DNA of 64,000 bases from Candidatus Moraniibacteriota bacterium (GCA_049304095.1 JBAQNU010000022.1:2348-66347), one strand, 5' to 3'. Counted from the stretch's first letter, positions 17,456-64,000 are shown. Program-made: numbers and translations. Notes: generated by a model from the sequence alone, not told the origin.

Positions 17456-17476
17456 AATGTGTTGGTTAGGATTTAC

Positions 17477-17622: not shown

Positions 17623-17636
17623 TTTTTGCAGATAGT

Positions 17637-24067: not shown

Positions 24068-24211
24068 GACTTACGCGTTTGCCAAAAGCAAGCTAACACC
24101 TTGCCAAACATAGCCTGATAAACGTAGCGGGATTGGGAAGTGAAAAAAAGCAAAAACAACCCCTAGAAGGCCACGCGCTTTGGAAGGTTGCTTTTGGTAA
24201 ATGCGTAAGTC
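24068..24211 (-). repeat. 146-nt structured repeat element, copy 3 (inverted orientation)
   Basis: Outer inverted repeat GACTTACGCGTTTGCCAAAAGCAA/TTGCTTTTGGTAAATGCGTAAGTC. The reverse complement contains box A CAACCTTCCAAAGCGCGTGGCCT and box B CTATGTTTGGCAAGGTGTTAGCTT. Confidence 0.65.
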
Positions 24212-24228
24212 ATGAATAAAGAAATAAA

Positions 24229-38510: not shown

Positions 38511-38547
38511 GCAGAATAATTATAATAGAGTAGATAAATAATAATTT

Positions 38548-38694
38548 GCGACTCAGGCCTGCCCTAAAAGCAATCTCCCAAAGCGCGTGGCCTTCAAAGA
38601 TTTGTTTTTGTTTTTTTTAGATTGATGTTATTGATGTTCCTCTAAACTAATTTTGGCTAGGTGTGAGCTTACTTTTAGGGCAGGCCTAAGTCTC
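38548..38694 (+). repeat. 146-nt structured repeat element, copy 2
   Basis: Outer inverted repeat GCGACTCAGGCCTGCCCTAAAAG/CTTTTAGGGCAGGCCTAAGTCTC (21/23). Boxes A and B are identical to copy 1. Confidence 0.7.
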
Positions 38695-40665: not shown

Positions 40666-41655
40666 ATGACAGATGTGTATTCTCAAGAAAAAATGCTAGC
40701 TGTTTTTAGCCAGAAATTTGAAATTGATGGAAAAAAATGTGTTGGGCATATTAAGACAGCTATTTCCAACGTCTTTGTTTTTCCTGATAAGGTTTATAAA
40801 ATATACAAAAATGACAATTCTTTCTTTAATGATAATTTTAATGATATTTCGCAAAAAAATAAACGCTTCGATTTTACCATAAAAGATTTTGACTGGAATC
40901 AGAGAATGACCCCAGAAATTTATTTCGCTATCAAGGGATGTGCGATGAGGGACGATCAAGTAGTATTTGTCAATAAGGAAGAAGCAACGGAGCTGGCGAT
41001 TGAAATGAAAAAAATAAATACAGACAGTGCGCTTTTATTGCAATTATTGGATAAAAATCTTTCTTTGACTGATTTTGAAACAATAGGCTTCCAGTTGCAT
41101 AAGCGCCTTGATGACTTACCTGAAGCATATACTCAGAAAAAACTAAAAGGTGTCATGCAACTCCGCATGGAAGATGTTAGCAATTGGGTCTTGGGTGTTC
41201 CTAAACACATCAGTCCAGAAGAGGCCAAAATATTCCTAGAAGCGCTTGATAGGAAAAAATCTGCTTATATGAATCAAGTGTCCGATGAAGAGATGGCAGG
41301 ATCTAGCATTGATGGTCACAGCGAAAATATGTTTTTTGATCAAGGGCGTTTGTATATCATGGATTCTTACGCGCCTAAAAAAGATTGGCTGTTGGCCGAT
41401 GGACATTTGAATTTTTATCGCCTAGCTACAGACATCTTGGCTCTTGGAAATCAGGAATCATTCGAGGCTTTCAAGGGAGGATATGAAAAGTATCGAGATC
41501 TAGGTGTCATGAACGAGAAACGAGAATCTTTTTGTATCTTTTATTCGTCAATGATTATGGTACCATATTTATATATGCTGGGAGAGCATGATGAGCGCAG
41601 AATGAAAGCCGCCAGAATTTATCATAATTTCGTCAGAAACCTACTTGGACAGTGA
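40666..41655 (+). CDS. Hypothetical protein, possible degenerate kinase-like (APH/choline-kinase) fold
   Basis: VGHIKTAISNVFVFPDKVYKIYKND resembles a P-loop/Lys region. DGHSENMFFDQGRLYIMDSY resembles the catalytic loop plus DFG-like segment, with the catalytic Asp position not clearly conserved. Confidence 0.3.
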   Translation: MTDVYSQEKMLAVFSQKFEIDGKKCVGHIKTAISNVFVFPDKVYKIYKNDNSFFNDNFNDISQKNKRFDFTIKDFDWNQRMTPEIYFAIKGCAMRDDQVVFVNKEEATELAIEMKKINTDSALLLQLLDKNLSLTDFETIGFQLHKRLDDLPEAYTQKKLKGVMQLRMEDVSNWVLGVPKHISPEEAKIFLEALDRKKSAYMNQVSDEEMAGSSIDGHSENMFFDQGRLYIMDSYAPKKDWLLADGHLNFYRLATDILALGNQESFEAFKGGYEKYRDLGVMNEKRESFCIFYSSMIMVPYLYMLGEHDERRMKAARIYHNFVRNLLGQ

Positions 41656-41730: not shown

Positions 41731-43545
41731 ATGGAAAAAATGCTACGACAGTTTTCAAAAGAAAAGTTTCCGGAAGAACGAAAAAAACTTGCTAGTGAAA
41801 TTTGGGAAATTAGAAAAAAAAGAAAACCCGCTCTTGATGAAGATAAGGAAAGAAAAGCAATTTCAGAAATAAGAAAAACTAAAATTGAAGAAGCGCACAC
41901 TGAGAGTATCAGTGAATTTTCAGCTAGAGTGGAAAAATTGCAGGAAGAGTTGGAAGAGCTAAATAGTTCCATCCTTGGAAGGGCAAGGAATTATTTTAAG
42001 ACAAAAAAAATTAAGAAGGATATATTATTTTCAAACAAGATGCTTGAGCTGAATCAACAAATGATGAGTGATGATCTTGCTCAGGTTGATGTTGGAATTG
42101 AAGGATCTGTCAGGGAAATAAAGAAATTTAATGATGATACCAGAAAGCATGAGCGACGAGATGAGTTGAGGAGGACTGGAGAAATGATTAGAAATTTTTA
42201 CAAGCAACAGGAAACTGAATGGGAGCAGGCCGGCTATTCCAAGCAAGAAATTGAAGAAAATTTCTCAGAAGAAAAATTGGTCTCTATGTCGATGGAAGAA
42301 TATGTTTTTTTGTTAAAGCGATTTCCCAGTCAAATGGTTACTCATGTGACAAGGCAAGGAGTTCGCGATCATTGGGGACATATGTTCCATAAGGCATATA
42401 TGAAAAAGTTCAGTAATGGTTTTGTCGATATTCTAAGAGATGGTCGATTGCGTTCACCCTTGGCTGTTCGATTCCTAGAACAAGAAAAGGACGCTGCTAT
42501 TGCTAAGTTATTAAAGCTAGATATGAAAAATAAAAAAGAAGCACTGGAGGACTTGAAATGGTATGTAGAATGTCCAGCCTTTGATAACGGTTTTGGTAAA
42601 AGCAAATACAGTGATACTTCAGCGATTCATGTGGCAGTTGAGGAGGTGGCAGATACTTTTTATGGAGCTGAAAGAGGAAATGAGATGTTCGTTGCTTATC
42701 CCGCTGCTTTTGTTGTTTCTAATTTCTATCATAGTAGTATGATTTCACTGGATGAGGCTGGGGGTGGTGGCATGGAGCATAATGATGCGTGGATTTGGGC
42801 GGAAGAGAAAGGGTTTGACATTAACGCTGGCGTTGTCTTTATTCCCAAGTCGGCCGAAGTTGATCCTGCCAGCGGGTCGCGATATAATATTGGTTCCAAT
42901 GGTGAGGTTGTTCTTCTGGAGGAAAATGTTAAATTATTGGAAAACCTAATAAAAAATCAAGAATTTGGAGAATTTATTGAAAATAAAGAGAACCTCGAAA
43001 AAGAGTTTGGCGTAAATTTAAGATTATCGGAGGCATTAAAGGAAACGATAAAACTAAAATTTGGCATTTCCAATACCGGAATAATTGATATTATTTTGGA
43101 TGAAATTTGCAGAGGCGCTGGCGGTAAACTACATTTTAGTCAAGAAATAACGCCAGAAAGAAAAGACGAGATTGACGATTTGCTTATGAAAAAAGAGCTT
43201 CTTTATAGTAAACCGCAAAAAACCATTTCGTCAGAAGAATATTGGAATAATTATTTTGAAAATAACCCAAAGATAAGACCGTCGAAGATTGTTTTTTATG
43301 AAGGAAATAGTCCAACGAAAGCTCTTAATGAGTGGAGGGCAAAAAATGGCATAATGCCAGCTGGAAGAGATGCGGACTCAATTCAACATAAAATAAGAAC
43401 AGAAAAGAAGCCACAGAATCTTTCTGATTTTTCGGAACGCAATGTTTCACAGCTATCCAAGCATGGCTTTGTCGGGGCGAATCGTTTTTATGATTTGGCG
43501 AAAGAATCAGTTGAAAGATATTATGCAAAAAATCAAAATCCATAA
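41731..43545 (+). CDS. Hypothetical protein (604 aa; N-terminal coiled coil)
   Basis: No recognisable motif. Confidence 0.5.
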   Translation: MEKMLRQFSKEKFPEERKKLASEIWEIRKKRKPALDEDKERKAISEIRKTKIEEAHTESISEFSARVEKLQEELEELNSSILGRARNYFKTKKIKKDILFSNKMLELNQQMMSDDLAQVDVGIEGSVREIKKFNDDTRKHERRDELRRTGEMIRNFYKQQETEWEQAGYSKQEIEENFSEEKLVSMSMEEYVFLLKRFPSQMVTHVTRQGVRDHWGHMFHKAYMKKFSNGFVDILRDGRLRSPLAVRFLEQEKDAAIAKLLKLDMKNKKEALEDLKWYVECPAFDNGFGKSKYSDTSAIHVAVEEVADTFYGAERGNEMFVAYPAAFVVSNFYHSSMISLDEAGGGGMEHNDAWIWAEEKGFDINAGVVFIPKSAEVDPASGSRYNIGSNGEVVLLEENVKLLENLIKNQEFGEFIENKENLEKEFGVNLRLSEALKETIKLKFGISNTGIIDIILDEICRGAGGKLHFSQEITPERKDEIDDLLMKKELLYSKPQKTISSEEYWNNYFENNPKIRPSKIVFYEGNSPTKALNEWRAKNGIMPAGRDADSIQHKIRTEKKPQNLSDFSERNVSQLSKHGFVGANRFYDLAKESVERYYAKNQNP

Positions 43546-43566: not shown

Positions 43567-44406
43567 ATGAAAAAACAAGCAAAAAATTTAGCGATTTTTG
43601 AGGGGAAGCAAATCCGGCGGATTTGGGATGCAAAAAAAGAATCGTGGTATTTTTCGATTATTGATATAATCGAAGTTCTGACTGGTTCGACAATACCGAA
43701 AAGATACTGGAGTGACTTAAAGGGTAAGTTGAAAAGAGAGGGGAGTGAAGTGTACGAAAAAATCGTACGGTTGAAAATGGAGGCAGAAGATGGGAAGCTG
43801 AGGGAAACTGACGCGGCTGACGTGGAAACGATTTTGCGTTTAGTCCAATCAGTTCCATCGCCAAAAGCGGAACCGATCAAGCTTTGGCTAGCGAAAGTTG
43901 GCTATGAGCGAGTGCAAGAAATCTCTGACCCGGAAAAAGCTTTGAATCGCAGTCGGGATTATTGGCAAAGGATGGGACGGAGCGAAAAATGGATTCAGCA
44001 AAGAATGATGGGGCAAGAAATTAGAAATAAACTGACGGATTATTGGAAAAATAATGAAGTCAAAGAACAAGACGAGTATGCGATTTTGACAAACATAATT
44101 CACCAGGAGTGGACTGATCTTTCAGTCAAAGAGCATAAGAGTTTGAAAAAACTCAAAACAGAAAATTTGCGTGATCATATGACGGACGCGGAGCTGGTTT
44201 TTACGGCTCTGGCAGAACTTTCTACCAGGCAGATTGCAGAGACGATGGAGACAAAAGGACTCGAAGAAAATAAAATACCAGCGAGGCGTGGCGGGCGAGT
44301 GGCCAAAAATGCTCGACTGGAGTTGGAGCAAAAAACCAGCAAAAAAGTGGTTAGCGGTAATAACTTTAAATTTTTATCAGGGCAGAAGAAATTGTTAGGA
44401 AAATAA
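43567..44406 (+). CDS. Bro-N domain protein, DinD-like (DNA-damage-inducible protein D family)
   Basis: The N-terminal Bro-N segment is IFEGKQIRRIWDAKKESWYFSIIDIIEVLTGS. The downstream segments ISDPEKALNRSRDYWQRMG and HMTDAELVFTALAELSTRQI parallel E. coli DinD (LSDDEAFRQLRLSERQRL, HMGSTELAANLFRITQTDE) as I recall it. Confidence 0.6.
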   Translation: MKKQAKNLAIFEGKQIRRIWDAKKESWYFSIIDIIEVLTGSTIPKRYWSDLKGKLKREGSEVYEKIVRLKMEAEDGKLRETDAADVETILRLVQSVPSPKAEPIKLWLAKVGYERVQEISDPEKALNRSRDYWQRMGRSEKWIQQRMMGQEIRNKLTDYWKNNEVKEQDEYAILTNIIHQEWTDLSVKEHKSLKKLKTENLRDHMTDAELVFTALAELSTRQIAETMETKGLEENKIPARRGGRVAKNARLELEQKTSKKVVSGNNFKFLSGQKKLLGK

Positions 44407-51497: not shown

Positions 51498-52745
51498 ATG
51501 CAACACATTGCGCTGACCAAAAAAGACAGAGTTGTTTCTCAGATTATTGCACGGGAAGAAAAAAGACAGGAAGAGGAACTGGAACTGATCGCTTCGGAAA
51601 ACTATGTTTCACCTGCCGTGCTCGAAGCGTTGGGCACAGTGCTGACGAATAAGTATAGCGAAGGCACGCCGAGTCACCGCTACTATGGAGGCAATCAAGT
51701 TATCGATGAAATGGAAGTTTTAGCAGTTACGCGACTCAAAAAAATCTTTGGTGCGGCTCACGCTAATGTTCAGCCTTTATCTGGCTCGCCGGCCAATGCC
51801 GCGGTGTATATGGCCTTTCTCAAACCGGGGGACAAAATTTTAGGACTAAAGTTGGATCACGGCGGGCATCTTTCTCATGGCCATCCGGTCAACTTTTCCG
51901 GTATGCTCTATAATTTCGTGCAATATGAAGTTGATCCCAAGACAGGAAGAATCGACATGGATGCGGTGCGAAAATTGGCCAAACGTGAAAAACCAAAAAT
52001 GATCGTCGCTGGTTATAGTGCCTATTCGCGCGAGATTGATTGGAAAGAATTCAAAAAAATTGCCGATGAGGTGGGCGCCTACACTTTTGCCGACATTGCT
52101 CACACGGCTGGGCTTATCGCGGCAAAATGCCTCAAAAATCCCGTGCCATATTTTGATGTTGTTTCGACAACAACGCACAAAACTCTTCGTGGTCCGCGGG
52201 GAGCGGTGATTATGTGCCAAGAAAAATTTGCTAAAATTATTGACCGAGCGGTTTTCCCCGGTATGCAAGGTGGACCGCACAATCATGTGACAGCAGCGAA
52301 GGCGGTGGCCTTTGGAGAAGTGCTGGACAAGAGTTTCAAAACCTATGCCAAGCAAGTAATCAAAAATTCAAAAAGCTTGGCGCAAGAGTTTTTGAAAAAA
52401 GGCTACAATATTGTTTCTGGCGGAACAGACAATCATTTGTTTGTTCTGGATTTGCAAAATAAAAGTATTGGCGGGCATGATGCGGAAACAATTTTGGAGT
52501 CGGTGGGTATTTCCGTTTCACGTTCCACCATTCCCAATGATCCCAAATCCCCCCTGAATCCGTCTGGCGTGAGAATTGGGACGCCGGCCGCGACAACGCG
52601 GGGAATGAAAGAGAAAGAGATGAAACAAATTGCCAGTTGGATTCATGAAGCTTTTGAAAATAAGGATAATAAAAAAGTTTTGGCGAAGATTAAAAAAGAA
52701 GTGAAAAAAATGTGCCTAAAATTTCCGATGCCGGGAAAAAAATAG
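51498..52745 (+). CDS. glyA: Serine hydroxymethyltransferase
   Basis: Typical SHMT N-terminus and the PLP-Lys region TTTHKTLRGPRGA. Confidence 0.95.
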   Translation: MQHIALTKKDRVVSQIIAREEKRQEEELELIASENYVSPAVLEALGTVLTNKYSEGTPSHRYYGGNQVIDEMEVLAVTRLKKIFGAAHANVQPLSGSPANAAVYMAFLKPGDKILGLKLDHGGHLSHGHPVNFSGMLYNFVQYEVDPKTGRIDMDAVRKLAKREKPKMIVAGYSAYSREIDWKEFKKIADEVGAYTFADIAHTAGLIAAKCLKNPVPYFDVVSTTTHKTLRGPRGAVIMCQEKFAKIIDRAVFPGMQGGPHNHVTAAKAVAFGEVLDKSFKTYAKQVIKNSKSLAQEFLKKGYNIVSGGTDNHLFVLDLQNKSIGGHDAETILESVGISVSRSTIPNDPKSPLNPSGVRIGTPAATTRGMKEKEMKQIASWIHEAFENKDNKKVLAKIKKEVKKMCLKFPMPGKK

Positions 52746-52774
52746 AATCAAAAAAACTCTTTCACAAAAACCTC

Positions 52775-52806
52775 ACCCTCGCCCAAAAAGCGAGGGTCTT
52801 TTTTCC
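52775..52806 (+). terminator. Rho-independent terminator after glyA
   Basis: ACCCTCGC-CCAAAAA-GCGAGGGT followed by CTTTTTTCC. Confidence 0.8.
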
Positions 52807-52865
52807 CTAAACTAAAGCTAAAATAAACTAAAAAAAACTTATCCCCAACCAAGAATGAATATCTA

Positions 52866-52893
52866 TTGCAAGCTTTTATCAATGTGCTATAAT
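52866..52893 (+). promoter_or_regulatory. Strong promoter TTGCAA-N16-TGcTATAAT upstream of giant gene
   Basis: TTGCAA at 52866-52871 and extended -10 TGCTATAAT at 52885-52893, 40 nt upstream of the ATG. Confidence 0.55.
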
Positions 52894-52932
52894 TTCAATG
52901 TCAGAAATAATGTAAAAAATTAAAAAACAAAA

Positions 52933-55900
52933 ATGGGTTTCATAGTTGAAATCATTCAGAATATTTCAGCATTTGTCGGACAGAAAGTCTCGACCATATC
53001 GACCGCTATCTCGGGGATAGGGGAGTTTTTTGGTGGGGATTTTTTCACTGATTTGTTGGCTTTTTTTGCCGTGCCATTTGTTCTAGCAAAAAGTTTTGTT
53101 TTGACAGTCTTTTCAGTCATACAAAAAACAACAGTTGATGCATTCAATAGTTTGGGTAATTTTTGGGAAATAATTAAAAATAGTCTAGTTGATTTTGGAG
53201 CCAGTATAAGCCTAGTTTTCCAACTGATTAAGAACAATGTTGCGGATCTTTTTGCCGGCCTTGTGGTTTCGCTGGCGAATAGTATCACAGCGGGAGAGCT
53301 TTTTGTCGAGGCGTTGGCAAAAAATATTAGTGATTTTGGCGCTTTGGTTTTTTCGGTTGTAAAAGACAGTTTAACTGGTTTTCCTTATGCCGTTTCGGCA
53401 ACAGTTATTGCGGGCCTGCTATTGGCAGTGGTGCTTTTAATGTTGACAGAGAAAATACTGGTTGTATTTGATGCGTTAGATTTGATGGTAATCAAAAAAA
53501 ATGTCAAACAATTTTTTGGAAAAACAATAATCAAACAAAGAGCAGAAAAGCAAGCTACTCCAATTGTCATGCCCAATGTGCAACCAATTTCTTTTGCCCA
53601 AGCATTTGTCGTTGTATCATTTTTAGCTTTTTTGGCATATAGTTTACCCCAAAAATATCAATTGGCCTCGCTTTCGCCATGGCTACAGCGTAGCGAGGGA
53701 ATCAACTCTGATGCTGGCGAAACAAGCCAAGACGGTGGTTACCAGGGTAATATGAATCTTACCCCTACAGAAATTCTTGGCGAAACCACCCAAGAAACCC
53801 TCTCCCTCCTAGCAGAATCTAACCCTAATCTTTATCAGCTGCTCAACGCTGGTGTACAAAGACGTAGCAATGCTACGTCTCTACAGCTAGGCATGATTAC
53901 CATCAATCCTCAGGGTCAAATTTTTCTATTACCAAAATCGATTAGTTCTCGTGAAATCAAAAATTATGTAATCAAAAATATTGATATCGCCGATCATGCT
54001 ATCACTTCCCGAACAATCAAAAACCACACCATCAGGTCAATTGATCTCAAAAGAGAGCTCACCATCGAGGAACTGAAAATTGATCACAATCTCACCGTGC
54101 GTGGCAATCTCATTACCGAAGGAACATTGATTGCTGTAGACATGAATCTCTCGGGTAACCTAGATCTGCAAGATAATCTAATGCTTAACATTGGCAATCA
54201 AAACACAGACTTCACCGCTAGTGGCGGACTAAATCTGGCTGGCAATCTCAACATCAACAACAATTTTCTAGCTAATGCCACTACTGGTAACATCACCGCT
54301 GGAACATACAATGGCAACACTATCACCAATGGTACCGGCACACTAACATTAAACGAGCATACTCTCACCCTCACCAACAACACTCAACTCAATCAAAATC
54401 TCCTCACCACTTCCACTCCGCAGTTTGCCAGATTGGGACTGGGAGTTCCAGCCGACGCCACTAACATTCTCACCGCCACTTCATCCTCCACCACTGATCT
54501 TTCGAAAACTCTAAATATTTCTCACACTGGAATCATCACTGGCACGGGTTATGCCGGATATTTTTCTAAAACCGGAGCGTCAACCACTAATGTGGGACTC
54601 TATACGATCGCCACCGGAGCAACCAATAACTATGCGTTACAGGTTGATTCGGCCGTAGTAGGAGCAACTAATTATACAATCTATGCCAATGGTGTGGCAA
54701 AAAATTATTTCGCGGGCAATATCGGCATAGGGGACGCTGCGCCTGGTACAAATCTCTCCGTCATTGGTAATGCGCAAATTGGATATGCATCCGGTACAAC
54801 CGTTTCGGCTGGCACGTCACTAGCAATCTCGAGCAACGTCGGCATCGGGACGACGGGGCCTGGGGCGAAGTTGGAAGTCTATGGAGGAATGGCATATTTT
54901 ACCGGTTTAGATTCAGTTAATGCCAATGGCAACGGCCTTGGTATTTTTGGTGGGAATGACACGGGTGGTATTTATATGAGAGGAGATAATAGTGGAACCA
55001 ATAATTTGTCGTTGGGAACTAATATCGGTGATATTTCATTTAAAACTGGCAGTGGAGCTGGGACGGATAGGATGATAATTCAAAACGGAGGCAACGTCGG
55101 CATCGGGACGACGAGTCCATTGGCAAACCTGCACATTCTTGGTGGAGCATCAAGCAACGCCAGTATGCGAATGGAGTCTGGTTCAGGAAGGTATGCTGGT
55201 TTCCAGATGTACGATGGGAATATTGGAAATAGCTGGGCCGTTGGACATGAGTTTGCGGCGACAAGTAATGCGTCACTGGTCTTTAGTTACGGAAATGTTG
55301 GCAGTGAATCTGTTGTAGCCAAAGTCTCAAGTACAGGCGGATTTACCCAGATAGGTAGCGGTGTTAATTCATTCGTAGGCAACGTCGGCATCGGGACGAC
55401 GGGGCCGGGGTATAAGCTGGATGTTGTTGGTACTTCAGGAAATGCTTCAGTTCTTCGAGTTTCAGGAGACCTTTATCCTGAGATTGCTTTGAAATATACA
55501 AATAATGCGGTCGACAATCTTTCAGCTCTCAGGTTCTACGACGAAGCAAATAATTGGAAGTGGATGATTGCTAATTATTCTGATGCTTATTCAACAGCGT
55601 CAATGCAAAATTTATTTGCTATTTATCAAAGAACTAATTCTGGCGATACGAATGTTAATGCATACAGGCTGGTTATTGACAATACCGGCAACGTCGGCAT
55701 CGGGACGACGAGTCCGGGGGCGAAGTTGGATATTAATGACAATTCAGGTGGAGCGGAAATTCCTTTTAAATTGCGTGTTTCTGACAATGCTAATGATTAT
55801 TGGCAAATTTCTAATGCTACAGGTGGTGCTGGATTATTTATTCCCACATTTAAAACTAAAGTAGATACAGCGAGTTATACAGGAGGACTAGGCGGTGATG

Positions 55901-58900
55901 GCACTGGGACTTCTGGCTCTACATTTGTTGCGGCAGTAAATGACGTTGCTTATTCAAGCGGTTATTATGCGGGGGCGGCTATGGCATTTGAAGCCAGAAA
56001 TTATGCGGAAACAGGAGCGTTGTCTAATAGAAACTTATTTAGTTGGACTAACTGGTATGCCAACAGTCCCTTAATGGTTATAAATCCGAGCGGTAATATT
56101 GGAATGGGATATTCGAATCCAGGAACAGCGAAACTAGCAATAAACGGCAACGTCGGCATCGGGACGACGAGTCCGGGGGGTAAAGTGGTTATTGCTGGTG
56201 GGGAGAGTAACACTGCATTATTGGGTGCAGTTGCTGGTAATACTTCTAACGCTTTAATCAATCTTGCCAGAAGTTCTGATGGTATAGTATTTCATGGATT
56301 AAGATTAGACGCTTCTGATAATTTGCATTTTGATTATCGTAAATCATCTGACGGAAGTCCACAAACAGCAATGACCATTGATAGAATAAGCGGCAACGTC
56401 GGCATCGGGACGACGGGACCAGGAGCAAAATTTCAAATCTACACCGGAGACGGAACAAGTGGTCTGCGCACCAGTCTCATCTGTTCTAACTCTACCACCA
56501 GCAAACTCTACACTGATGCCAATGGAAATATGATTTGTGGCACTGATCAAACTGGTAGTGGCACCGGAAATCTTGTTGATACTCTCTCTGCCACCTTAGG
56601 AGCAGGCAATGACGCTGGGGGACTGGGGATGATTAATCTGGGGAATGTGGGGATTGGGACGACGAGTCCCATCGCTAAACTCCATAGTGTTGTTGCTGAT
56701 GGTGTTTCCTTTGCAATAGGGCTTTCGGGCACCACAAAAGGACTTCGCGTAGAAGCAGATTCAACCTCAATGATTATCCGCGGAGTTGATACTACTCTTA
56801 CGGGTTCTTACCAACCACTTCGTTTTGGTGGATCTGATCTTCGTTTTGAAACAAATGGGACAACTGAAGCAATGCGGATTCTTTCAAATGGCAACGTCGG
56901 CATCGGGACGACATCGCCAAATACCGCACTTCATGTTCACTCTGCAAACGGAGTGGTGGATTCCTTTGGCAATCTGATGGTCTCCACTAATGATGCAGTG
57001 GCTATAAATAAAGGTGGATACCTTACTTTTGGAGGAAGCTGGGACGCAGGAGGCGGTTCGTCAACATTCGGTGGAATTGGCGGACGGAAAGAAAATGTTA
57101 CTTCCGGTGACGCCACAGGATATTTGATGTTCTCGACTTCAAATTCTGGTTCAACTTTGACTGAGAAAATGCGGATTACATCCAGTGGCAACGTCGGCAT
57201 CGGGACGACGGGGCCAGGGGCGAAGCTGGAAGTGGCAGGTGCTGGTTCTGCTAACACAATAAAACTTAAAGACACAACCAACCCTTACACTACACTTTTT
57301 ATGGGGGCACAGCAGTTCGTTACTAATCGAAGTCCAATAGATGGCGTTTTTGAAGATGTGAATAAAGCAGCCGCCAGTGTAATCTTAATTTCGGGAGTTG
57401 GAAATTCAGCCGTAACATTTAATACTCATACATCAAATAACACGAATCCATTGGAAAGGATGCGAATCAATGGCGACGGCAACGTCGGCATCGGGACACC
57501 GTCACCGTTGGCAAAACTTCATGTAGTAGGTAATTATGATAATGATGGTACTGGAGGTATTCTGCTTGATGCACTTTCTGGTTCTCCAGATATATATAGT
57601 TTAAGAATAAATCCTTTTGTTGTAGGTAGTCAAAAAGTTGGTTATCAATTCCAAACAAAAAGTGTATCTGGTGGGACAAATGTTCCATTGACATTTGATA
57701 ATAGTGGCAACGTCGGCATCGGGACGACGAGTCCGGGAGAAAAACTTTCTATCTTGACTGGTGCCTTAGAACTCAAAAGTAGTGCCTTTAATACATCAAA
57801 CAATAGAATCTATTTTACGAGACATCAAGTGGGTAGTACTTATGGCGGAATTGATTGGCGAGATAGTGCGGGTACGGTTCTATATCAAGTAGCGAGTGGT
57901 GTTTTGGTTGGTAATGGCATTGAATTTAACGAAGGAGACGGTGTTAATAATAGGATGTATATTCAACCCGGCGGCAACGTCGGCATCGGGACGACGGGAC
58001 CGAGTTCGAGGTTACATGTCCAGAGCGTTTCAGGGAGCACTGAAAATACACGTTTTGCAAATAATGATTTTGTTATTGGGTCTGTAGGTACAGAACTGAA
58101 AGTAAGTTTTGGAGCTGCAAGTGGTAACACGTATGCAATTTTGAATGCTTTGAATAGTGGTGAAACGGCATGGACTAATCTGGCCCTACAAACAGGCGGA
58201 GGCAACGTCGGCATCGGGACGACGGGGCCAGGGACAAAACTGCATATTTATGGTACCACGGCTGCTACCGTACAAACTATAGAAGGTGTTGGGGGCGGAG
58301 TGAGTGCTGGTCTTGTTATTAAAGCTGACACAACTGGGCAAGCTGGAATTCAACTTTATGAGAATAGTACGCAAAAATGGAACATATATAAAACCGCTGA
58401 TGCGAATGGCGATTTGCGCTTCTATTCGCTTGGAGCACTAGCTGATGTGTTGACGATAAAAGAAGCAAGTGGCAACGTCGGCATCGGCACGACGGGGCCA
58501 CTCAATCTTCTTCACCTGAAAAAAGGAACAAACTTAAATCTAATTTTAGGTAATCAAAATGTTCAAAGTGGAGCAACGGCCATGTCAATTGTGGCAATTG
58601 ATGATGGCTACACCACAAACATTCCATTGGAATTTCACGCTTCAAAGTTTTATTTCCATAGCGGCAACGTCGGCATCGGGACGACGACGCCGAATATCGG
58701 GCTGGAAGTCGTGAAAGATAATGGAAATGGTTGGACGGCTTTGTTTAGGAGCGCTGCCAGCAGTGAAGGCGTCTTTTTGGGAACAAGGTATACTCATGCA
58801 ACCGTTCAAGGCATCTCTGGTGATTTAGGTTCGCTCACAGATTTATTGATAAATCCACTCGGCGGCAACGTCGGCATCGGGACGGCGGGGCCGACATCTA

Positions 58901-61900
58901 AATTGCATATATATGGAGCTGATGACCCGACAAACGGCCAGCTGCGCATAGAAAGTTCTGGCGCTGACGCTCGTATCGAGTTGGATAATAGCAGCGCTAA
59001 TAGATATTCATTGAATTTCTCCGCTTCTGCAGGATATGAAGGTCTGCGGTTTATGTATAACAATTCCGATAAAGTGATCTTTGATGAAAACGGCAACCTC
59101 GGCATCGGGACGACGAGTCCGGGCTCTGCGTTGGATGTCAATGGTTCAATAAACATTCCTTCGACTGGTGATTACAAGATGAATAATATTGTTCGCATAG
59201 CTGGTGGAGGAACTTTTTATTCTGCTGTTGGTACGGCAGCAGCGCCGAGCTATGCTTTCGGTGCTGATGTGGATACTGGTTTATTTCTGACCGCATCCGG
59301 GTCTAACGCGATTGGATTTTCGACAGGTGGGACAGAGGCAATGAGAATAACTTCGGGCAACGTCGGCATAGGCACCACCACACCAGGAGCCACCTTGGAC
59401 GTAAATGGAAGAATATTTGGAGCAAACGGAACTGCTGCTTTACCAAGTATTTCATCACGTGGAGAAAACAATGCTGGATTATTCTTTGGCGATGACGGAG
59501 TTGGTTCGTATCTTGGTTTTTCTGCTGCAGGATCAGAAGGAATACGTCTTAATCGTTTTGGCAACGTCGGCATTGGTACGACGGCGCCAGGATCGTTATT
59601 CACAGTAGCGGGAACAATAAGATCAGACACAAGTGGAACCCCCGAAGTGTATCTAAATAAATCGGGGACTCGTGGATGGTCTATCCGTAACGATGGAGCG
59701 TTTAATATATATAATTGGGAAACTGCCACAAATCAATTGACGGTTTTGAATAGCGGCAACGTCGGCATCGGGACGACGACACCACAAACGAAACTCGATG
59801 TGGCAGGGACAATTCGCGCTACTGCTTATTCTACTCCTACTTCTGGTACGGGGGTTGAAATTTTATACGGAGCACAGGCTGCGAATACGGGAAATATAAT
59901 TGCATATGATAGAACTGCATCTGCATATAAACCGCTTACTCTTGATGGTTCAACGATATTGTTAAATGCGTACAACACAAGCGGCAACGTCGGCATCGGG
60001 ACGACGAGTCCGGGGGCGAAGTTAGATGTTCGTTCTGGTACTAACGCAACATTAAATTATCCGACAGGAGATTGGGCAGCAAAGGTTTTCATGCAAACAG
60101 ACGCTTCGACTTCAGGCGGATTAGTAGTTGGTAACAGATGGCAAGATAATACTTCAACAATATTTGAAGCAGGAAGTCTTTATGGAAGTGGTAGCGCATG
60201 GGCGTCTATGTTTGTGATCAAAGGTCAAGGCAACGTCGGCATCGGGACGACGAGTCCGGGGGCAACTCTTGATGTCAATGGGACTTCTATTATTCGAAAT
60301 AATACAATATGGAAGGCTGGAGCAGGAAACAATACTAATCTAATTAGTTATTCTGGTACAGATGATGGAATATTCCGCCAATATTCTGGTGGTATAATAA
60401 AAAATCAACTATTTGCTGCTGGGGACAGTTATTTCAATAGCGGCAACGTCGGCATCGGGATAGCGGGACCACAGGAGAAATTGACTGTTGCAGGTAATCA
60501 ATTATTTGCATTAGCTCCTGATGTTGGTTCCTATGGAAAATTGGAAGCAGCCTATGGAGGAAATATTGCAACTTATGGCGTAGCAGCAAATATTGATTTT
60601 TATAGACCCGTTGCAGGTAGCGGGAATGAGGGGGAAATAAGATTTAGTACTAACCCTGGAGGTGGTGGCGTTGGTAGTTTGACCCAACGAATGGTAATAG
60701 ATAAGAGCGGCAACGTCGGCATCGGGACGACGGGACCAACCAATCTTGTTGAAATTCAGGGCAATACTACAGGTACTGGTGGGACAGGTTCAGTTTTATA
60801 TGTAAAACAAAATGCTAGTTGGACAGCGAATGAGCCTTACTCACTAAATGTTTCAGGTTATTCAAACTTAAATGGATTCAGAATATCTGGACCGGGTGTG
60901 AGGAGTTTGTATAGTGGGGCTTCTGGTTCTCAGATTGAGTTTGCGACTCACTTTGGTTTTATTTCATTCGCTGGTGGTAGCCAAGGAACCGATCGGTATA
61001 TGACAATTCAAAACGGCGGCAATGTCGGCATCGGGACGACAGCTCCTGGTTACAAATTACAAGTCTACACCGGCACCGCCAATGGCTATGTTAATTCCGA
61101 TGGAACTTGGGGTTCCAGTTCTGATCTAAATTTGAAAAAAAACATCTCTTCTGTTTCTTCTGTCCTAAACAATGTATTAGCTCTTAATCCAGTTTTATAT
61201 AATTTCAAAACAGAAAGAAACGGAACAACTCCCCATATCGGTTTTGTTGCCCAAGAAGTGGAAAAACTCTTTCCCGAACTAGTCTCCACCGGACCAGATG
61301 GTATAAAGGGAATCAGCTATGCTATGTTTACCCCACTTCTCACTAAAGCGATTCAACAGCAACAAACTCAAATCACAGGCATTGCGGACAATCAAAACAA
61401 AATCGTCGAGCAACTGACCAATCAACTTTCCTATCAACTTGCGGACAAAACAATTTCCATCGATACTAAAATAAACCTGATTGGGGCGAGTCTGGACGAG
61501 TTAAACCAGGAACAATATGATCAACAAATCAAAAGAATAAAGGGGCAAATAGAGGATAATACCGGCAATTTAACGCTTTTGGATGCCAGATTGAAACTGT
61601 TGGAAACAGTGCTCACACTGGATAGTAATAACCTGAAAGTCATCGGTGATATTTCTGCCAACAACCTGACGCTCAGCGGAAAACTAGATGTGGACAGTGC
61701 GGTCGCCGGCGCCTTTGCTGTGAAAGTTAGCGCGGATAAACCTAAAACAATCGGTGAGGCATATATTTGCCCCGCAGGCTTCGCGGGAGATGCTTGTGAT
61801 ACGTCAGACGCTTCCAGCGATGGAAAATCAATCCTGGTGCAAACTTCAGCCGTCTCAGCCAGCGCCAAAATTTTTGTCACCCCCGAAAATGATACAAATG

Positions 61901-62022
61901 GTAGCGTTTGGGTGGAGAAAAAAAGTGACAATTCCGGGTTCAAAATTATGCTAAAACCATTGACGCCAATCCTCGAAAAGATTAAAATAAATTGGTGGAT
62001 TGTGGAGAAAATTTCGGACTAA
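52933..62022 (+). CDS. Giant (3029 aa) membrane-anchored fibre-like surface protein: N-terminal TM region, beta-helix-like Asn/Thr-rich segment, about 25 GNVGIGTT(S/G)PGAKL-type repeats, C-terminal phage-tail-fibre intramolecular-chaperone (peptidase S74-like) domain
   Basis: Three hydrophobic helices fall in the first 240 aa. About 25 repeat units of 65-105 aa each begin SGNVGIGTTxPxxKLxV. The C-terminus SSSDLNLKKNISSVSSVLNNVLALNPVLYNFKTERNGTTPHIGFVAQEVEKLFPELVSTGPDGIKGISYAMFTPLLTKAIQQQ matches the SD(x)RLKxNI...IGxIAQEVxxxxPExV...Y...LxxAxQ pattern of self-cleaving tail-spike/endosialidase chaperone domains. Confidence 0.85.
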   Translation: MGFIVEIIQNISAFVGQKVSTISTAISGIGEFFGGDFFTDLLAFFAVPFVLAKSFVLTVFSVIQKTTVDAFNSLGNFWEIIKNSLVDFGASISLVFQLIKNNVADLFAGLVVSLANSITAGELFVEALAKNISDFGALVFSVVKDSLTGFPYAVSATVIAGLLLAVVLLMLTEKILVVFDALDLMVIKKNVKQFFGKTIIKQRAEKQATPIVMPNVQPISFAQAFVVVSFLAFLAYSLPQKYQLASLSPWLQRSEGINSDAGETSQDGGYQGNMNLTPTEILGETTQETLSLLAESNPNLYQLLNAGVQRRSNATSLQLGMITINPQGQIFLLPKSISSREIKNYVIKNIDIADHAITSRTIKNHTIRSIDLKRELTIEELKIDHNLTVRGNLITEGTLIAVDMNLSGNLDLQDNLMLNIGNQNTDFTASGGLNLAGNLNINNNFLANATTGNITAGTYNGNTITNGTGTLTLNEHTLTLTNNTQLNQNLLTTSTPQFARLGLGVPADATNILTATSSSTTDLSKTLNISHTGIITGTGYAGYFSKTGASTTNVGLYTIATGATNNYALQVDSAVVGATNYTIYANGVAKNYFAGNIGIGDAAPGTNLSVIGNAQIGYASGTTVSAGTSLAISSNVGIGTTGPGAKLEVYGGMAYFTGLDSVNANGNGLGIFGGNDTGGIYMRGDNSGTNNLSLGTNIGDISFKTGSGAGTDRMIIQNGGNVGIGTTSPLANLHILGGASSNASMRMESGSGRYAGFQMYDGNIGNSWAVGHEFAATSNASLVFSYGNVGSESVVAKVSSTGGFTQIGSGVNSFVGNVGIGTTGPGYKLDVVGTSGNASVLRVSGDLYPEIALKYTNNAVDNLSALRFYDEANNWKWMIANYSDAYSTASMQNLFAIYQRTNSGDTNVNAYRLVIDNTGNVGIGTTSPGAKLDINDNSGGAEIPFKLRVSDNANDYWQISNATGGAGLFIPTFKTKVDTASYTGGLGGDGTGTSGSTFVAAVNDVAYSSGYYAGAAMAFEARNYAETGALSNRNLFSWTNWYANSPLMVINPSGNIGMGYSNPGTAKLAINGNVGIGTTSPGGKVVIAGGESNTALLGAVAGNTSNALINLARSSDGIVFHGLRLDASDNLHFDYRKSSDGSPQTAMTIDRISGNVGIGTTGPGAKFQIYTGDGTSGLRTSLICSNSTTSKLYTDANGNMICGTDQTGSGTGNLVDTLSATLGAGNDAGGLGMINLGNVGIGTTSPIAKLHSVVADGVSFAIGLSGTTKGLRVEADSTSMIIRGVDTTLTGSYQPLRFGGSDLRFETNGTTEAMRILSNGNVGIGTTSPNTALHVHSANGVVDSFGNLMVSTNDAVAINKGGYLTFGGSWDAGGGSSTFGGIGGRKENVTSGDATGYLMFSTSNSGSTLTEKMRITSSGNVGIGTTGPGAKLEVAGAGSANTIKLKDTTNPYTTLFMGAQQFVTNRSPIDGVFEDVNKAAASVILISGVGNSAVTFNTHTSNNTNPLERMRINGDGNVGIGTPSPLAKLHVVGNYDNDGTGGILLDALSGSPDIYSLRINPFVVGSQKVGYQFQTKSVSGGTNVPLTFDNSGNVGIGTTSPGEKLSILTGALELKSSAFNTSNNRIYFTRHQVGSTYGGIDWRDSAGTVLYQVASGVLVGNGIEFNEGDGVNNRMYIQPGGNVGIGTTGPSSRLHVQSVSGSTENTRFANNDFVIGSVGTELKVSFGAASGNTYAILNALNSGETAWTNLALQTGGGNVGIGTTGPGTKLHIYGTTAATVQTIEGVGGGVSAGLVIKADTTGQAGIQLYENSTQKWNIYKTADANGDLRFYSLGALADVLTIKEASGNVGIGTTGPLNLLHLKKGTNLNLILGNQNVQSGATAMSIVAIDDGYTTNIPLEFHASKFYFHSGNVGIGTTTPNIGLEVVKDNGNGWTALFRSAASSEGVFLGTRYTHATVQGISGDLGSLTDLLINPLGGNVGIGTAGPTSKLHIYGADDPTNGQLRIESSGADARIELDNSSANRYSLNFSASAGYEGLRFMYNNSDKVIFDENGNLGIGTTSPGSALDVNGSINIPSTGDYKMNNIVRIAGGGTFYSAVGTAAAPSYAFGADVDTGLFLTASGSNAIGFSTGGTEAMRITSGNVGIGTTTPGATLDVNGRIFGANGTAALPSISSRGENNAGLFFGDDGVGSYLGFSAAGSEGIRLNRFGNVGIGTTAPGSLFTVAGTIRSDTSGTPEVYLNKSGTRGWSIRNDGAFNIYNWETATNQLTVLNSGNVGIGTTTPQTKLDVAGTIRATAYSTPTSGTGVEILYGAQAANTGNIIAYDRTASAYKPLTLDGSTILLNAYNTSGNVGIGTTSPGAKLDVRSGTNATLNYPTGDWAAKVFMQTDASTSGGLVVGNRWQDNTSTIFEAGSLYGSGSAWASMFVIKGQGNVGIGTTSPGATLDVNGTSIIRNNTIWKAGAGNNTNLISYSGTDDGIFRQYSGGIIKNQLFAAGDSYFNSGNVGIGIAGPQEKLTVAGNQLFALAPDVGSYGKLEAAYGGNIATYGVAANIDFYRPVAGSGNEGEIRFSTNPGGGGVGSLTQRMVIDKSGNVGIGTTGPTNLVEIQGNTTGTGGTGSVLYVKQNASWTANEPYSLNVSGYSNLNGFRISGPGVRSLYSGASGSQIEFATHFGFISFAGGSQGTDRYMTIQNGGNVGIGTTAPGYKLQVYTGTANGYVNSDGTWGSSSDLNLKKNISSVSSVLNNVLALNPVLYNFKTERNGTTPHIGFVAQEVEKLFPELVSTGPDGIKGISYAMFTPLLTKAIQQQQTQITGIADNQNKIVEQLTNQLSYQLADKTISIDTKINLIGASLDELNQEQYDQQIKRIKGQIEDNTGNLTLLDARLKLLETVLTLDSNNLKVIGDISANNLTLSGKLDVDSAVAGAFAVKVSADKPKTIGEAYICPAGFAGDACDTSDASSDGKSILVQTSAVSASAKIFVTPENDTNGSVWVEKKSDNSGFKIMLKPLTPILEKIKINWWIVEKISD
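54825..61050 (+). repeat. Intragenic repeat array: about 25 copies of a near-identical 24-nt core GGCAACGTCGGCATCGGGACGACG spaced 200-300 nt
   Basis: The core is repeated with identical codon choice (GGC AAC GTC GGC ATC GGG ACG ACG), whereas the intervening sequence is divergent. It is GC-rich relative to the genome. Confidence 0.85.
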
Positions 62023-62033
62023 ATTTAGGGGGT

Positions 62034-62107
62034 GGCCATATCACGATTTCTCGCCAAAATGCCAAAATGTTGTGAAATCGTGAGATATGGGCGTTGTGAA
62101 ATCGTGA
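62034..62107. promoter_or_regulatory. Cluster of GAAATCGTGA decamer repeats (one inverted, two direct) just downstream of giant gene
   Basis: CCATATCACGATTTC...GAAATCGTGAGATATGG is an inverted pair. GTTGTGAAATCGTGA occurs twice, 24 nt apart. GCCAAAAT occurs twice in the loop. Confidence 0.4.
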
Positions 62108-62145
62108 TACGGGTCCATTATTGAAATGAAAGAAACACAACAAAA

Positions 62146-62166
62146 AAATCGACAAATTGTCGATTT
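62146..62166. repeat. Perfect 21-bp palindrome AAATCGACAA-A-TTGTCGATTT
   Basis: Intergenic. Another candidate protein-binding site. Confidence 0.35.
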
Positions 62167-62290
62167 GAGAGAAAAAAATAATATTGTAGGGACAGACCTC
62201 GTGTCTGCCCAGAAAGCTAGAACGCTCGAATCTCCACCCCCAACTTTTGTTTGAAAACTTGTTTTATCTGCCGAATCTCTTCTTTTATTT

Positions 62291-62576
62291 ACCCCCACAC
62301 CAATTATGTTTTACGTATACATCCTAAAAAGCAAAAAAGACAAAAACCTATACACTGGCTCGACAAATGATTTAGCAAGGAGATTTGCTGAGCACAATAG
62401 TGGCAAAGTTTTTTCAACAAAACTACGCAGACCTTTCGAACTGTTGTATTATGAAGCATATAAAGCAGAAGGAGATGCCAGAAAAAGAGAACATAACCTT
62501 AAACTAAGAAGCAGAGCATTGGCACAATTAAAAAAACGATTAGAAGCAAGTTTGCAAACATAATTGGTGTGGGGGT
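62291..62576 (+). mobile_element. GIY-YIG mini-cassette bracketed by perfect 18-bp inverted repeats
   Basis: ACCCCCACACCAATTATG at 62291-62308 and CATAATTGGTGTGGGGGT at 62559-62576. The left repeat contains the ATG and the right repeat contains the TAA of the enclosed ORF. Confidence 0.45.
62306..62563 (+). CDS. Stand-alone GIY-YIG nuclease-family protein (UPF0213/YhbQ-like)
   Basis: MFYVYILKS...KNLYTGSTNDLARRFAEHNSG carries the GIY...YIG and Arg/Glu/Asn catalytic core; 85 aa. Confidence 0.8.
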   Translation: MFYVYILKSKKDKNLYTGSTNDLARRFAEHNSGKVFSTKLRRPFELLYYEAYKAEGDARKREHNLKLRSRALAQLKKRLEASLQT

Positions 62577-62896
62577 GAATCTTCTTGTGCTTTGACATAG
62601 CCGTCAAGTGATATTTGACCATCGTTTATATCCGTTTTAAGTTCGTCTCTCACTCGATAAAGTTCAGCGCTTAATTCCTCTCGCACGTCATTAATATCAG
62701 ATTTCAGTTCATTTCTGACAATATGCAGTTCTTCCCTCAAATCAACTTCCAATTTATTAAAACGATCATCTACCTTGTTGAAGCGACCATCTACCTTGTT
62801 GAAGCGACCATCAATAGCACCCAAGATAATTTGAGTCTGTTCCGCAAGATCTTTATGGGTAACGTATGTAGTTTTAACTTTATTTTTCTTAAGCAT
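62540..62896 (-). CDS. Hypothetical coiled-coil protein containing a 21-nt tandem repeat (DGRFNKV x3)
   Basis: Heptad-rich 118-aa ORF. CATCTACCTTGTTGAAGCGAC is repeated 2.3 times at 62767-62812. The C-terminal codons run into the right inverted repeat of the GIY-YIG cassette. Confidence 0.4.
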   Translation of the reverse strand: MLKKNKVKTTYVTHKDLAEQTQIILGAIDGRFNKVDGRFNKVDDRFNKLEVDLREELHIVRNELKSDINDVREELSAELYRVRDELKTDINDGQISLDGYVKAQEDSPPHQLCLQTCF

Positions 62897-62924
62897 ATTT
62901 TAATTTTAGCGTAAGGCTAATCCC

Positions 62925-64000
62925 ATGTCAAACTTAGATAAACTCCCCATGAGCGTCGAAAAAAAAGACGTTCCCAAAAAGAATTTCCTGGAAATCACGT
63001 GCCCAAATTGTCATGGCACCAATTTTGTCAAACGCGGAACACGTCAAAAGAAAAACGAAATTGTTCAACTCTATCTTTGCAATGATTGCCAAAAAACGTT
63101 CACTCCAGGAGCGACCAAGGGCAAGCACTATCCAATTAGTGTTATTCTCGATGCAATTAGTTTGTACTATATTGGGTATAGTCTTGAGGAGTCTGTAAAA
63201 AGAGCTAGTCGAATAATTGATGCGAATAAAGAAAATATTATTGACAGGGCGACGTTGTTGGATTGGATCAATGAGTACGAACCTCTCTGCGCATTCGCCC
63301 GCATGCGCCCCCACGCCCTAAAACTATTTCCACCTGAACAAACGATCTCCAGCGCCACATTGGCACACCGCCAACTCTACCGTTTCCGCCATCACCGCTC
63401 AAAAACAATTCTCATCATCCAAGAAGACTGGAAACATAGCAAGTTTTGGCCCTTGAAAGAATTTTTGGATCTCGTGCCCGTTGAATGTCCTCACCAATAC
63501 TTCCAAGAAGGTGCTCGCGCCTCGGAAACACCACTGATGTTTTCCAAAACGGAAATGATTGTGCGCGGAAAACACAACTTTGCTAACAAGATGGCCAAAT
63601 TTGTCTTGGAATCAGTGGAAGAGCCGAAAGCTCGCCACGACGCCCTGCAGAGATTTATGTTGGCCAATGACAGCGTGACCATCGCCACCGAAGTGCCAAT
63701 TTATCTACGAAGAGAAGATTTGGAACATATGCAGACGCAACTTGGTTTCGAACTCTACAAAAAACAAACAACAGAAGAAAAAAAAGCTAACAAAGACATT
63801 GAAAAATATCCGGCTGAGGATTTGCCAAAATTGATCACTGGCCACATCGACTTCGTCCAAGTTAGAAACGGTCAAATTCACATTCTCGACTACAAACCGA
63901 ATGCTGCCAAAGAACGGCCAATTGAGCAACTGACAATTTACGCCCTGGCATTATCTCGCCTGACGGGATTAAAAGTTTTCAATTTCAAATGCGCCTGGTT
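62925..64000 (+). CDS. Zinc-ribbon + RecB/Cas4-like PD-(D/E)xK nuclease-domain protein (3' end outside window)
   Basis: Open frame from ATG 62925 to the window end. It is absent from the ORF track because it has no stop. N-terminus CPNCHGTNFVKRGTRQKKNEIVQLYLCNDCQKTF is a Cys4 ribbon of IS1 InsA-like shape. C-terminus ITGHIDFVQVRNGQIHILDYKPN...QLTIYALAL gives the D / D-x-K / QxxxY nuclease motifs. Confidence 0.6.
   Translation, partial: MSNLDKLPMSVEKKDVPKKNFLEITCPNCHGTNFVKRGTRQKKNEIVQLYLCNDCQKTFTPGATKGKHYPISVILDAISLYYIGYSLEESVKRASRIIDANKENIIDRATLLDWINEYEPLCAFARMRPHALKLFPPEQTISSATLAHRQLYRFRHHRSKTILIIQEDWKHSKFWPLKEFLDLVPVECPHQYFQEGARASETPLMFSKTEMIVRGKHNFANKMAKFVLESVEEPKARHDALQRFMLANDSVTIATEVPIYLRREDLEHMQTQLGFELYKKQTTEEKKANKDIEKYPAEDLPKLITGHIDFVQVRNGQIHILDYKPNAAKERPIEQLTIYALALSRLTGLKVFNFKCAW

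Follow-up and report, generated by a model that had tools for sequence, protein, structure and literature searches.

A giant fibre gene and its recurring 24-nt core

We analysed a 64,000-nt stretch of DNA from Candidatus Moraniibacteriota bacterium (GCA_049304095.1, JBAQNU010000022.1:2348-66347; hereafter the window), and in it one giant gene on the + strand (52933-62022, 3029 aa) in which a 24-nt core, GGCAACGTCGGCATCGGGACGACG, returns at the start of module after module and encodes the peptide GNVGIGTT. Its sequence assigns the gene to the MAT (mosaic adhesive trimer)/Peptidase_S74 family: a Peptidase_S74 domain (PF13884) is predicted at aa 2730-2784 over the full length of the model (E=4.4e-14), its start reading ...SSSDLNLKKNI..., and the product matches solved MAT fibres of Bdellovibrio (8ond, which is Bd2133, E=1.3e-8; 8oml, 3.9e-5; 8ojn, 1.1e-4; 8on4, 3.3e-3). 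The N-terminal 592 aa are 64-65% identical to partial proteins of Candidatus Moraniibacteriota metagenome-assembled genomes (MAGs). The gene is chromosomal; the window also carries genes for SHMT, ProRS, MurB/C/G, FtsW, TrmD, DnaX, SMC, ribosomal protein L10 and NusB as well as one tRNA, and is part of an ordinary cellular chromosome.

The motif (G)NVGIGTTxPxxKL is present 26 times and aligns with Bd2133 and its relatives. We took the match to the capping loop from the alignment to solved chains because the motif printed for the family (V-G-G/N-pi-x-x-P-x-x-x-L; PMC10769870) is one position off. On this alignment the 24-nt core encodes the capping loop of the MAT family, in which case each core-to-core unit would be one β-helix stretch flanked by capping loops. 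For two modules, an AlphaFold2 monomer model made with an alignment of the gene’s own modules fell short of confirming the fold (pLDDT 56, pTM 0.24). The translation shows three hydrophobic stretches near the N-terminus (approximately aa 40-63, 153-178 and 220-237) that form a probable membrane anchor, and the tail that follows the S74 core is probably the remainder of the released chaperone. The product is probably a very long, membrane-anchored trimeric fibre, an adhesin for attachment to host cells.

The core is found in 14 exact copies in the window, where dinucleotide-preserving shuffles predict none, and in 23 copies (54832 to 61041) if up to 3 mismatches are allowed, while the fibre gene contains 26 copies of the peptide motif G-N-[VIL]-G-[IM]-G. 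Three of these 26 are diverged in their DNA (54715, 56092 and 56641), and the copy at 59356 has 4 mismatches. An earlier inspection of the sequence without database searches (the sequence-only reading) had counted about 25 identical 24-mers in one gene; the repetition holds, the count of identical copies does not. All core copies lie on the + strand and in the same frame within the open reading frame (ORF), and the spacings between them are all multiples of 3, from 192 to 459 nt and mostly 200-310 nt, in agreement with the recurrence every 200-300 nt noted earlier. The repeat-unit surroundings, which had been described as diverged, are indeed so: for any pair of modules, similarity extends over at most 67 nt, and module interiors have a mean amino-acid identity of 21% (highest 36%). 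The antisense ORFs of the PVVPMPTLP type were rightly called spurious, since the antisense frame, which reads VVPMPTL 20 times, carries 104 stops. A search for donor copies of the core (up to 3 mismatches) elsewhere in the 64-kb window returned none, leaving the suggested donor cassette without a counterpart there, and none of the other repeats in the window is related to the core. The coordinates are collected in Table 1.

Table 1 Features of the fibre gene, with positions counted from the first nucleotide of the window.
Feature	Position	Strand	Basis
Giant fibre gene, MAT / Peptidase_S74	52933..62022	+	ORF, translation, Pfam, solved-fibre matches
N-terminal region, three hydrophobic stretches, probable anchor	52933..53650	+	translation
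Conserved stalk, common to Moraniibacteriota relatives	53900..54878	+	blastn vs L477, protein alignment
Array of 26 different modules, 18-135 aa, each opening with GNVGIGTTxPxxKL	54715..61119	+	motif and module comparison
Diverged motif copy GGCAATATCGGCATAGGGGACGCT (GNIGIGDA)	54715..54738	+	peptide motif; L477/L478 orthologues
Core, 1 mismatch (AGC..., Ser for Gly), first core of array; orthologue homology end	54832..54855	+	
Exact core	55090..55113	+	
Exact core	55378..55401	+	
Exact core	55687..55710	+	
Diverged motif copy GGTAATATTGGAATGGGATATTCG (GNIGMGYS)	56092..56115	+	peptide motif
Exact core	56146..56169	+	
Exact core	56392..56415	+	
GNVGIGTT with 5 silent differences, GGGAATGTGGGGATTGGGACGACG	56641..56664	+	peptide motif
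Core, 1 mismatch	56890..56913	+	
Exact core	57187..57210	+	
Core, 2 mismatches	57478..57501	+	
Exact core	57706..57729	+	
Exact core	57973..57996	+	
Exact core	58201..58224	+	
Core, 1 mismatch	58471..58494	+	
Exact core	58663..58686	+	
Core, 1 mismatch	58864..58887	+	
Core, 1 mismatch (Leu for Val)	59092..59115	+	
Core, 4 mismatches, GGCAACGTCGGCATAGGCACCACC	59356..59379	+	peptide motif
Core, 2 mismatches	59560..59583	+	
Exact core	59755..59778	+	
Exact core	59983..60006	+	
Exact core	60229..60252	+	
Core, 3 mismatches	60442..60465	+	
Exact core	60709..60732	+	
Core, 2 mismatches, last of array	61018..61041	+	
Peptidase_S74 intramolecular chaperone / autoprotease domain (predicted), aa 2730-2784	61120..61284	+	Pfam
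C-terminal tail beyond S74 core	61285..62019	+	translation

Silent sites of the core, in this gene and across lineages

The copies of the core use the same synonymous codons, as the sequence-only reading had observed: at each of the eight positions one codon accounts for 85-96% of the copies. These are minor codons in this genome (the window has approximately 42% G+C, the core 71%): elsewhere in the fibre gene, 17% of Gly codons are GGC and 12% of Thr codons are ACG. Under the codon use of the non-core part of this gene the eight codons have a joint probability of 7e-7, and under that of the window’s other genes one of 1.5e-5. G or C fills each of the eight wobble positions, and the centre of the core, positions 7-17, is its least variable part. 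The constraint has sharp edges. The invariant proline two codons downstream of the core (Pro+9) is encoded by CCA 12 times, CCG 11 times, CCT twice and CCC once, and five codons are in use for the conserved Leu+13. These silent sites are also random across 369 distinct exact-core instances from 240 loci, in which the third base of Pro+9 holds 0.18 bit and the flanking silent sites are nearly information-free. Since the core codons are uniform and minor while the silent sites of Pro+9 and Leu+13 are random, the constraint on the core acts at the level of the DNA and not of the protein.

The beginning of the array offers a natural internal control. The motif copy at 54715 and its orthologues in two related contigs (L477, position 1410, and L478, position 11093) show ordinary silent-site drift (ATA/ATT, GGG/GGC/GGT), while the copy that follows it is an exact canonical core in both relatives and differs in the window by 1 mismatch (AGC for GGC). 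The relatives therefore do not display ordinary synonymous divergence in the core, the pattern that would have spoken against the sequence-only reading: both keep the exact core, and their modules differ.

Two explanations would place the constraint in the transcript or its translation. In the first, the codons slow or tune the ribosome at the start of each β-helix module for the folding of the capping loop or for trimerisation. The position of the core at a structural boundary, the capping loop (PMC10769870), and the use of codons that are minor for this genome would suit such a role. However, the same codons are kept in loci of 28-65% G+C, where their rarity must differ, A+T-rich relatives use none of the eight codons for this same peptide, the copy at 56641 in this very gene has 5 silent changes, and Pro+9 shows no codon preference; we consider codon selection of this kind very unlikely. 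In the second, a hairpin in mRNA or single-stranded DNA is selected, with CGUCG (positions 6-10) and CGACG (20-24) as the stem and two wobble-with-wobble pairs in it. The stem is present (-6 kcal/mol), and wobble pair 9:21 has the strongest complementarity excess among diverged copies (z=3.4), but shuffled sequence folds about as well (z about -1), the structure forms inconsistently in context, covariation is weak, other wobble pairs are also in excess (up to z=2.4), and the loop wobbles 12, 15 and 18 and the unpaired position 3 are fixed just as firmly. With no Rfam family found in 52500-64000 at E up to 1, a selected hairpin seems scarcely plausible.

The core is not confined to this genome. 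The exact 24-mer is present in at least 120 genome contigs of a one-genome-per-species collection and in at least 120 viral contigs of a viral collection. By their record titles, approximately 64 of the 120 genome matches listed are Patescibacteria and 12 are DPANN-type archaea; the remainder of those listed belong to Elusimicrobia, Omnitrophica, Bdellovibrionales, Gammaproteobacteria, Acidobacteria, Bacteroidia, methanogens and others. Several of the viral matches are giant-virus bins, and because these are labelled GVMAG, giant viruses seem to carry such fibres too. The G+C content of core-bearing loci spans 28-65%: DPANN loci at 35-37% G+C have exact and near-exact cores, one of them in a 457-kb contig. 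Deposited phage genomes yielded only approximate matches to the core and its flanks, such as the ‘chaperone of endosialidase’ gene of Synechococcus phage S-CRES1/2 (85%).

As a check on ascertainment, we scanned a metagenome sample with a codon-blind degenerate pattern, GGNAAYGTNGGNATHGGNACNAC: 27 of 198 GNVGIGTT instances, in 12 of 120 loci, were the exact 24-mer, where per-position codon frequencies predict about 0.5, and the distribution of mismatches was bimodal with peaks at 0 and approximately 7. In a viral sample scanned in the same codon-blind way most instances lay in A+T-rich contigs and differed from the core at 5-8 silent sites, so the peptide alone does not force the DNA sequence. 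As a further control, a synonymous 24-mer of equal G+C but with other G/C choices was found in 1 viral contig, compared with at least 120 for the canonical one. Another, A+T-rich version of the junction, GGTAATGTTGGTATAGGTACAACA, has exact matches in 92 viral contigs (L313, L481-L559). Many of these have four copies at identical spacings of 219, 525 and 261 nt, so they represent a single fibre gene, with a core version of its own, in related phages.

Similarity between the loci is not whole-gene relatedness. A blastn search with the window gene against 476 loci returned matches of only 25-65 nt, centred on the core, and the best matches of the window’s modules are spread over 24 different loci at 35-58% amino-acid identity. 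Recent common descent or transfer of whole genes, with too little time for the core to diverge, would be plausible for a family so widespread in viruses and small-celled symbionts. It is refuted by the randomised silent sites directly beside the core and by nucleotide similarity that is limited to 25-65 nt, with module interiors as dissimilar as those above, and we give it next to no credence.

Module boundaries and homogenisation of the core

Comparisons between loci show modules that have been replaced and reshuffled, with breakpoints at the cores. The Moraniibacteriota contig L477 is 76% identical to the window over 997 nt of the N-terminal stalk (window 53900-54878; blastn). This homology ends 23 nt past the first core; further downstream only cores match and the modules differ, L477 having four exact cores of its own. 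We then considered all fetched loci, taking matches of at least 85% identity and at least 150 nt: of 86 internal match ends inside arrays, 50% fall within 10 nt of a core, compared with 8% expected from random placement (200 randomisations, maximum 21%). Many matches cover exactly one module, core to core, between arrays that are otherwise unrelated: L051 and L058 (98% over 317 nt), L035 and L070 (83% over 362 nt), L236 and L479 (80% over 316 nt) and, across phyla, a Saccharibacteria MAG (L176) and a Paceibacterota MAG (L200; 83% over 159 nt). Two neighbouring modules of L058 map 3.2 kb apart in L090.

The cores of a gene also evolve together. Two copies from one locus agree in a non-canonical wobble state 2.2 times as often as expected (0.241 vs 0.108), a value reached in 0 of 1000 simulations that keep each copy’s number of changes and the global site preferences. 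The flanks of copy pairs with a shared wobble variant have a similarity of 0.340, compared with 0.336 for other pairs. Some genes have fixed or nearly fixed a core variant of their own: C15T in 12 of 12 copies of L440 and 8 of 11 of L086, and C12T in 7 of 8 copies of L274. Homogenisation is thus confined to the core, a case of concerted evolution, and the gene-fixed variants point to a process that depends on the likeness of the copies to one another and not on one particular sequence.

The sequence-only reading had proposed either gene conversion or selection on the DNA or RNA itself. Both the DNA-level constraint on the silent sites and the core-only conversion within the family, with its gene-specific variants and unlike flanks, bear this out; conversion inside one gene falls short, as the same 24-mer, with the same G-versus-C choices, is the commonest version among hundreds of contigs that are unrelated and belong to several phyla, to archaea or to viruses. 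The same difficulty meets the proposal that conversion within genomes is all there is: amino acids would fix 16 of the 24 bases, conversion would then concentrate there, GC-biased repair would set the wobbles, and the uniform core would arise passively, without exchange between genomes and without any part in diversification. All eight wobble bases being G or C, the core-only homogenisation seen in gene-specific variants, and the share of exact cores, which rises from 2% to 10% with the number of motif copies per locus (a weak and confounded trend), would fit this proposal. GC-biased repair does not, however, explain why unrelated lineages most often make the same choice between G and C at four-fold sites, with the GC-matched alternative at least 120 times rarer, nor why core-to-core modules are common to different arrays and MAGs. 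We regard it as rather unlikely.

We wondered whether the core might instead be the recognition site, in DNA or mRNA, of a dedicated trans-acting factor (a nuclease, recombinase, guide-RNA system or RNA-binding protein) that is conserved along with it and that, rather than homology alone, starts recombination. A sequence of 24 nt that is exact in genomes of such different G+C content and in different domains of life, with its centre the least variable part, would be expected of such a site, and the target lengths of homing endonucleases and guide RNAs cover 24 nt. Against this, no gene family recurs beside the arrays (the most frequent neighbour is present in 10 of 240 loci), the GIY-YIG nuclease has homologues near arrays in 5 loci only, the 40 window ORFs scanned include no reverse transcriptase, integrase or recombinase, Rfam returned no match, and the gene-fixed core variants fit an identity-dependent process better than a fixed external reader. 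A dedicated factor is decidedly unlikely to be the explanation.

Two candidates for such an accessory function were examined and rejected. A gene with a GIY-YIG nuclease domain lies directly downstream of the fibre gene (62306-62563, +; Pfam E=2e-18); as a junction-cutting enzyme it lacks any regular association with arrays. The most frequent neighbour family, the best candidate for an accessory gene recurring beside canonical-core arrays, is found in L038, L048 and about 8 more viral loci, and looks like a giant-virus major capsid protein.

The explanation we favour, with a confidence somewhat above an even balance, is that the core is an in-frame, GC-rich homology junction for module recombination that is kept uniform by core-only conversion and module exchange. 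The 24 nt that encode GNVGIGTT at each module start would act at the DNA level: as the junction is identical, 71% G+C and in one frame, strand exchange or template switching at it would join modules in frame, with a partner junction that may belong to the same gene, to a paralogous fibre gene or to foreign DNA entering the cell. Recurrent exchange, together with conversion of short patches within the junction, would keep its silent positions uniform while the interiors diverge freely, and the canonical version would persist as its modules circulate among genomes and viruses. Exchange at the cores would accordingly be driven by sequence identity, exchange between lineages would sustain the canonical core, and the outcome may benefit the organism through a diversified attachment fibre. 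Because all cores are direct and in frame, a crossover or template switch between two of them would remove, duplicate or replace whole modules without loss of frame. The gene had also been called prone to expansion and contraction, for which its in-frame direct repeats are a plausible substrate: of 253 core pairs, 107 have an identical tract of at least 24 nt in common, and the longest such tract is 42 nt. Of recent expansion there is no sign.

Several observations weigh against the homology-junction explanation. We looked for recent tandem duplication inside the fibre gene and found none, as all 26 modules differ, and the closest match of any of its modules is 58% at the amino-acid level, i.e. 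no module is recently shared. Of the 35 match ends at cores in the wider comparison, 28 come from one connected cluster of 13 viral contigs, and the modules shared across phyla are few and of modest identity. Near-canonical cores also occur at loci with a single motif copy (17% within 2 mismatches). For RecA-type recombination, 24 nt is close to the lower limit by E. coli figures, and recombination within genomes alone gives no reason for distant phyla to agree in their G-versus-C choices. Finally, the evidence for rearrangement is a comparison between metagenome assemblies rather than of reads from the source genome, and repeats might in principle have produced chimeras in such assemblies. 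In the key contigs, the cores have exact tracts of 22-32 nt in common at the longest, which lies below the smallest k-mer of the common JGI metaSPAdes workflow, so chimeras are unlikely in these contigs.

The exact 3029-aa protein is not on record in public assemblies. Assemblies of relatives break at the fibre gene (L477, L478, L576 and L577), one wholly inside it and one approximately 100 nt past the first exact core, and two short-read contigs with an identical SHMT gene end about 160 nt past its stop codon, just before the start of the fibre gene. Strain-level heterogeneity or repeat-induced fragmentation would fit these breaks.

A broader form of the homology-junction explanation would make the 24-mer a junction standard across domains: ultra-small symbionts (Patescibacteria and DPANN archaea), predatory and other bacteria, phages and giant viruses would take up each other’s modules and splice them in frame. 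Selection for recombinability would then maintain the sequence, which would be more than a by-product of conversion, and the adhesin modules would belong to one shared pool, with trade at a level below that of whole genes. We put this forward as a possibility, and a doubtful one.

Elsewhere in the window there are two phage-type genes with Bro-N / AntA antirepressor domains (43567-44406 and 30997-31884, both +); the related contig L479 has a 279-aa Bro-N gene (1486-2325) a few genes upstream of its fibre gene. Three large ORFs have no Pfam match (1598-4183, -, 861 aa; 41731-43545, +, 604 aa; 40666-41655, +, 329 aa). A direct repeat of 166 nt, 82% identical, is found at positions 1-166 and 63065-63230, at the two ends of the window and 63 kb apart. 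An intergenic element of approximately 70-150 nt, perhaps a small mobile or regulatory repeat, has three copies with 79-83% identity, two direct (17471-17623 and 38544-38693) and one inverted (24143-24217).

Known recombining systems and the meaning of the junction

In Neisseria pilE/pilS and Borrelia vlsE, short conserved nucleotide blocks flank variable segments and provide homology for segmental conversion. Both systems consist of silent donor cassettes and a single expression site, unlike the present array, which has no donor copies in the 64-kb window and all of its modules in the expressed gene. A shufflon or invertible segment was considered and rejected: 23 of 23 cores are direct on the + strand, no recombinase is present among the window ORFs scanned and there is no recurring neighbour gene. 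A diversity-generating retroelement was likewise rejected, as no long near-identical repeat pair involves the fibre gene and no reverse transcriptase domain is present among the window ORFs scanned.

The closest likeness is to the MAT fibres of Bdellovibrio bacteriovorus, which are intertwined trimeric β-helices with a repeated capping-loop motif at their edges and tips that have been exchanged during evolution (Caulton et al. 2024, PMC10769870). The window gene has in common with them the C-terminal Peptidase_S74 chaperone, the capping-loop motif V-G-..-P-x-x-x-L, the matches to solved fibres, and a conserved presenting end with a variable distal part. It differs in its length of 3029 aa and its 26 modules, the Bdellovibrio constructs and residues quoted in PMC10769870 lying within approximately the first 1,150 residues, in its hydrophobic N-terminal anchor segments, and in its host, a Patescibacterium and not a predator. 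That study treats the motif as a feature of the protein; a search of its text for the word ‘nucleotide’ gave no match, and ‘recombination’ appears only in the methods. The MAT β-helix also superposes on phage S74 fibres and tailspikes such as K1F endosialidase and the T5 L-shaped fibre (PMC10769870), which resemble the window gene in their C-terminal intramolecular chaperone and are much shorter.

Recombination at conserved motifs is known from the adhesin genes of T-even phages, in which exchanges take place inside or close to the motifs of highest conservation, the His boxes of gp37 and the glycine-rich motifs of gp38 (Tetart et al. 1996/1998, cited in Trojet et al. 2011, PMC3157838). As far as that account goes, the logic is the same as that of module exchange bounded by cores, where half of the breakpoints fall within 10 nt of a core. 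The proteins, however, are of an unrelated family, the conservation described there is among closely related phages, and the parts of PMC3157838 that we draw on make no mention of fixed silent sites or of a nucleotide sequence common to different phyla or domains. No gp37/gp38 homology was detected in the window gene, for which a Phage_T4_gp36 Pfam match stayed below threshold (17.8 bits, cut-off 26).

The protein family was thus already known, and the behaviour of the junction resembles known recombination at conserved adhesin motifs. What is apparently new is that module junctions in different bacterial phyla, in archaea and in viruses share a single nucleotide sequence whose silent sites are fixed. 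Our literature searches found no paper with the peptide motif or the 24-mer as text, no description of the nucleotide-level feature, and nothing relevant on S74 in the candidate phyla radiation (CPR) or DPANN.

The finding is real, and larger than the sequence-only reading could show. If true, it is an unusually clean case of selection, or of a self-sustaining process, on silent coding sites, with a built-in control in the unconstrained silent site of an invariant proline two codons away. It may be a reason why such genes break metagenome assemblies, in which case the module order in short-read data may be unreliable. With the 24-mer as primer or probe, one could amplify fibre modules straight from environmental DNA and follow how they are rearranged. 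An old idea, modular exchange at short linker homologies, becomes directly testable by silent recoding. For episymbiotic bacteria and archaea, which depend on attachment to a host, the junction suggests a route by which attachment fibres diversify, and it ties the diversification of symbiont fibres to the long-known mosaicism of phage tail fibres.

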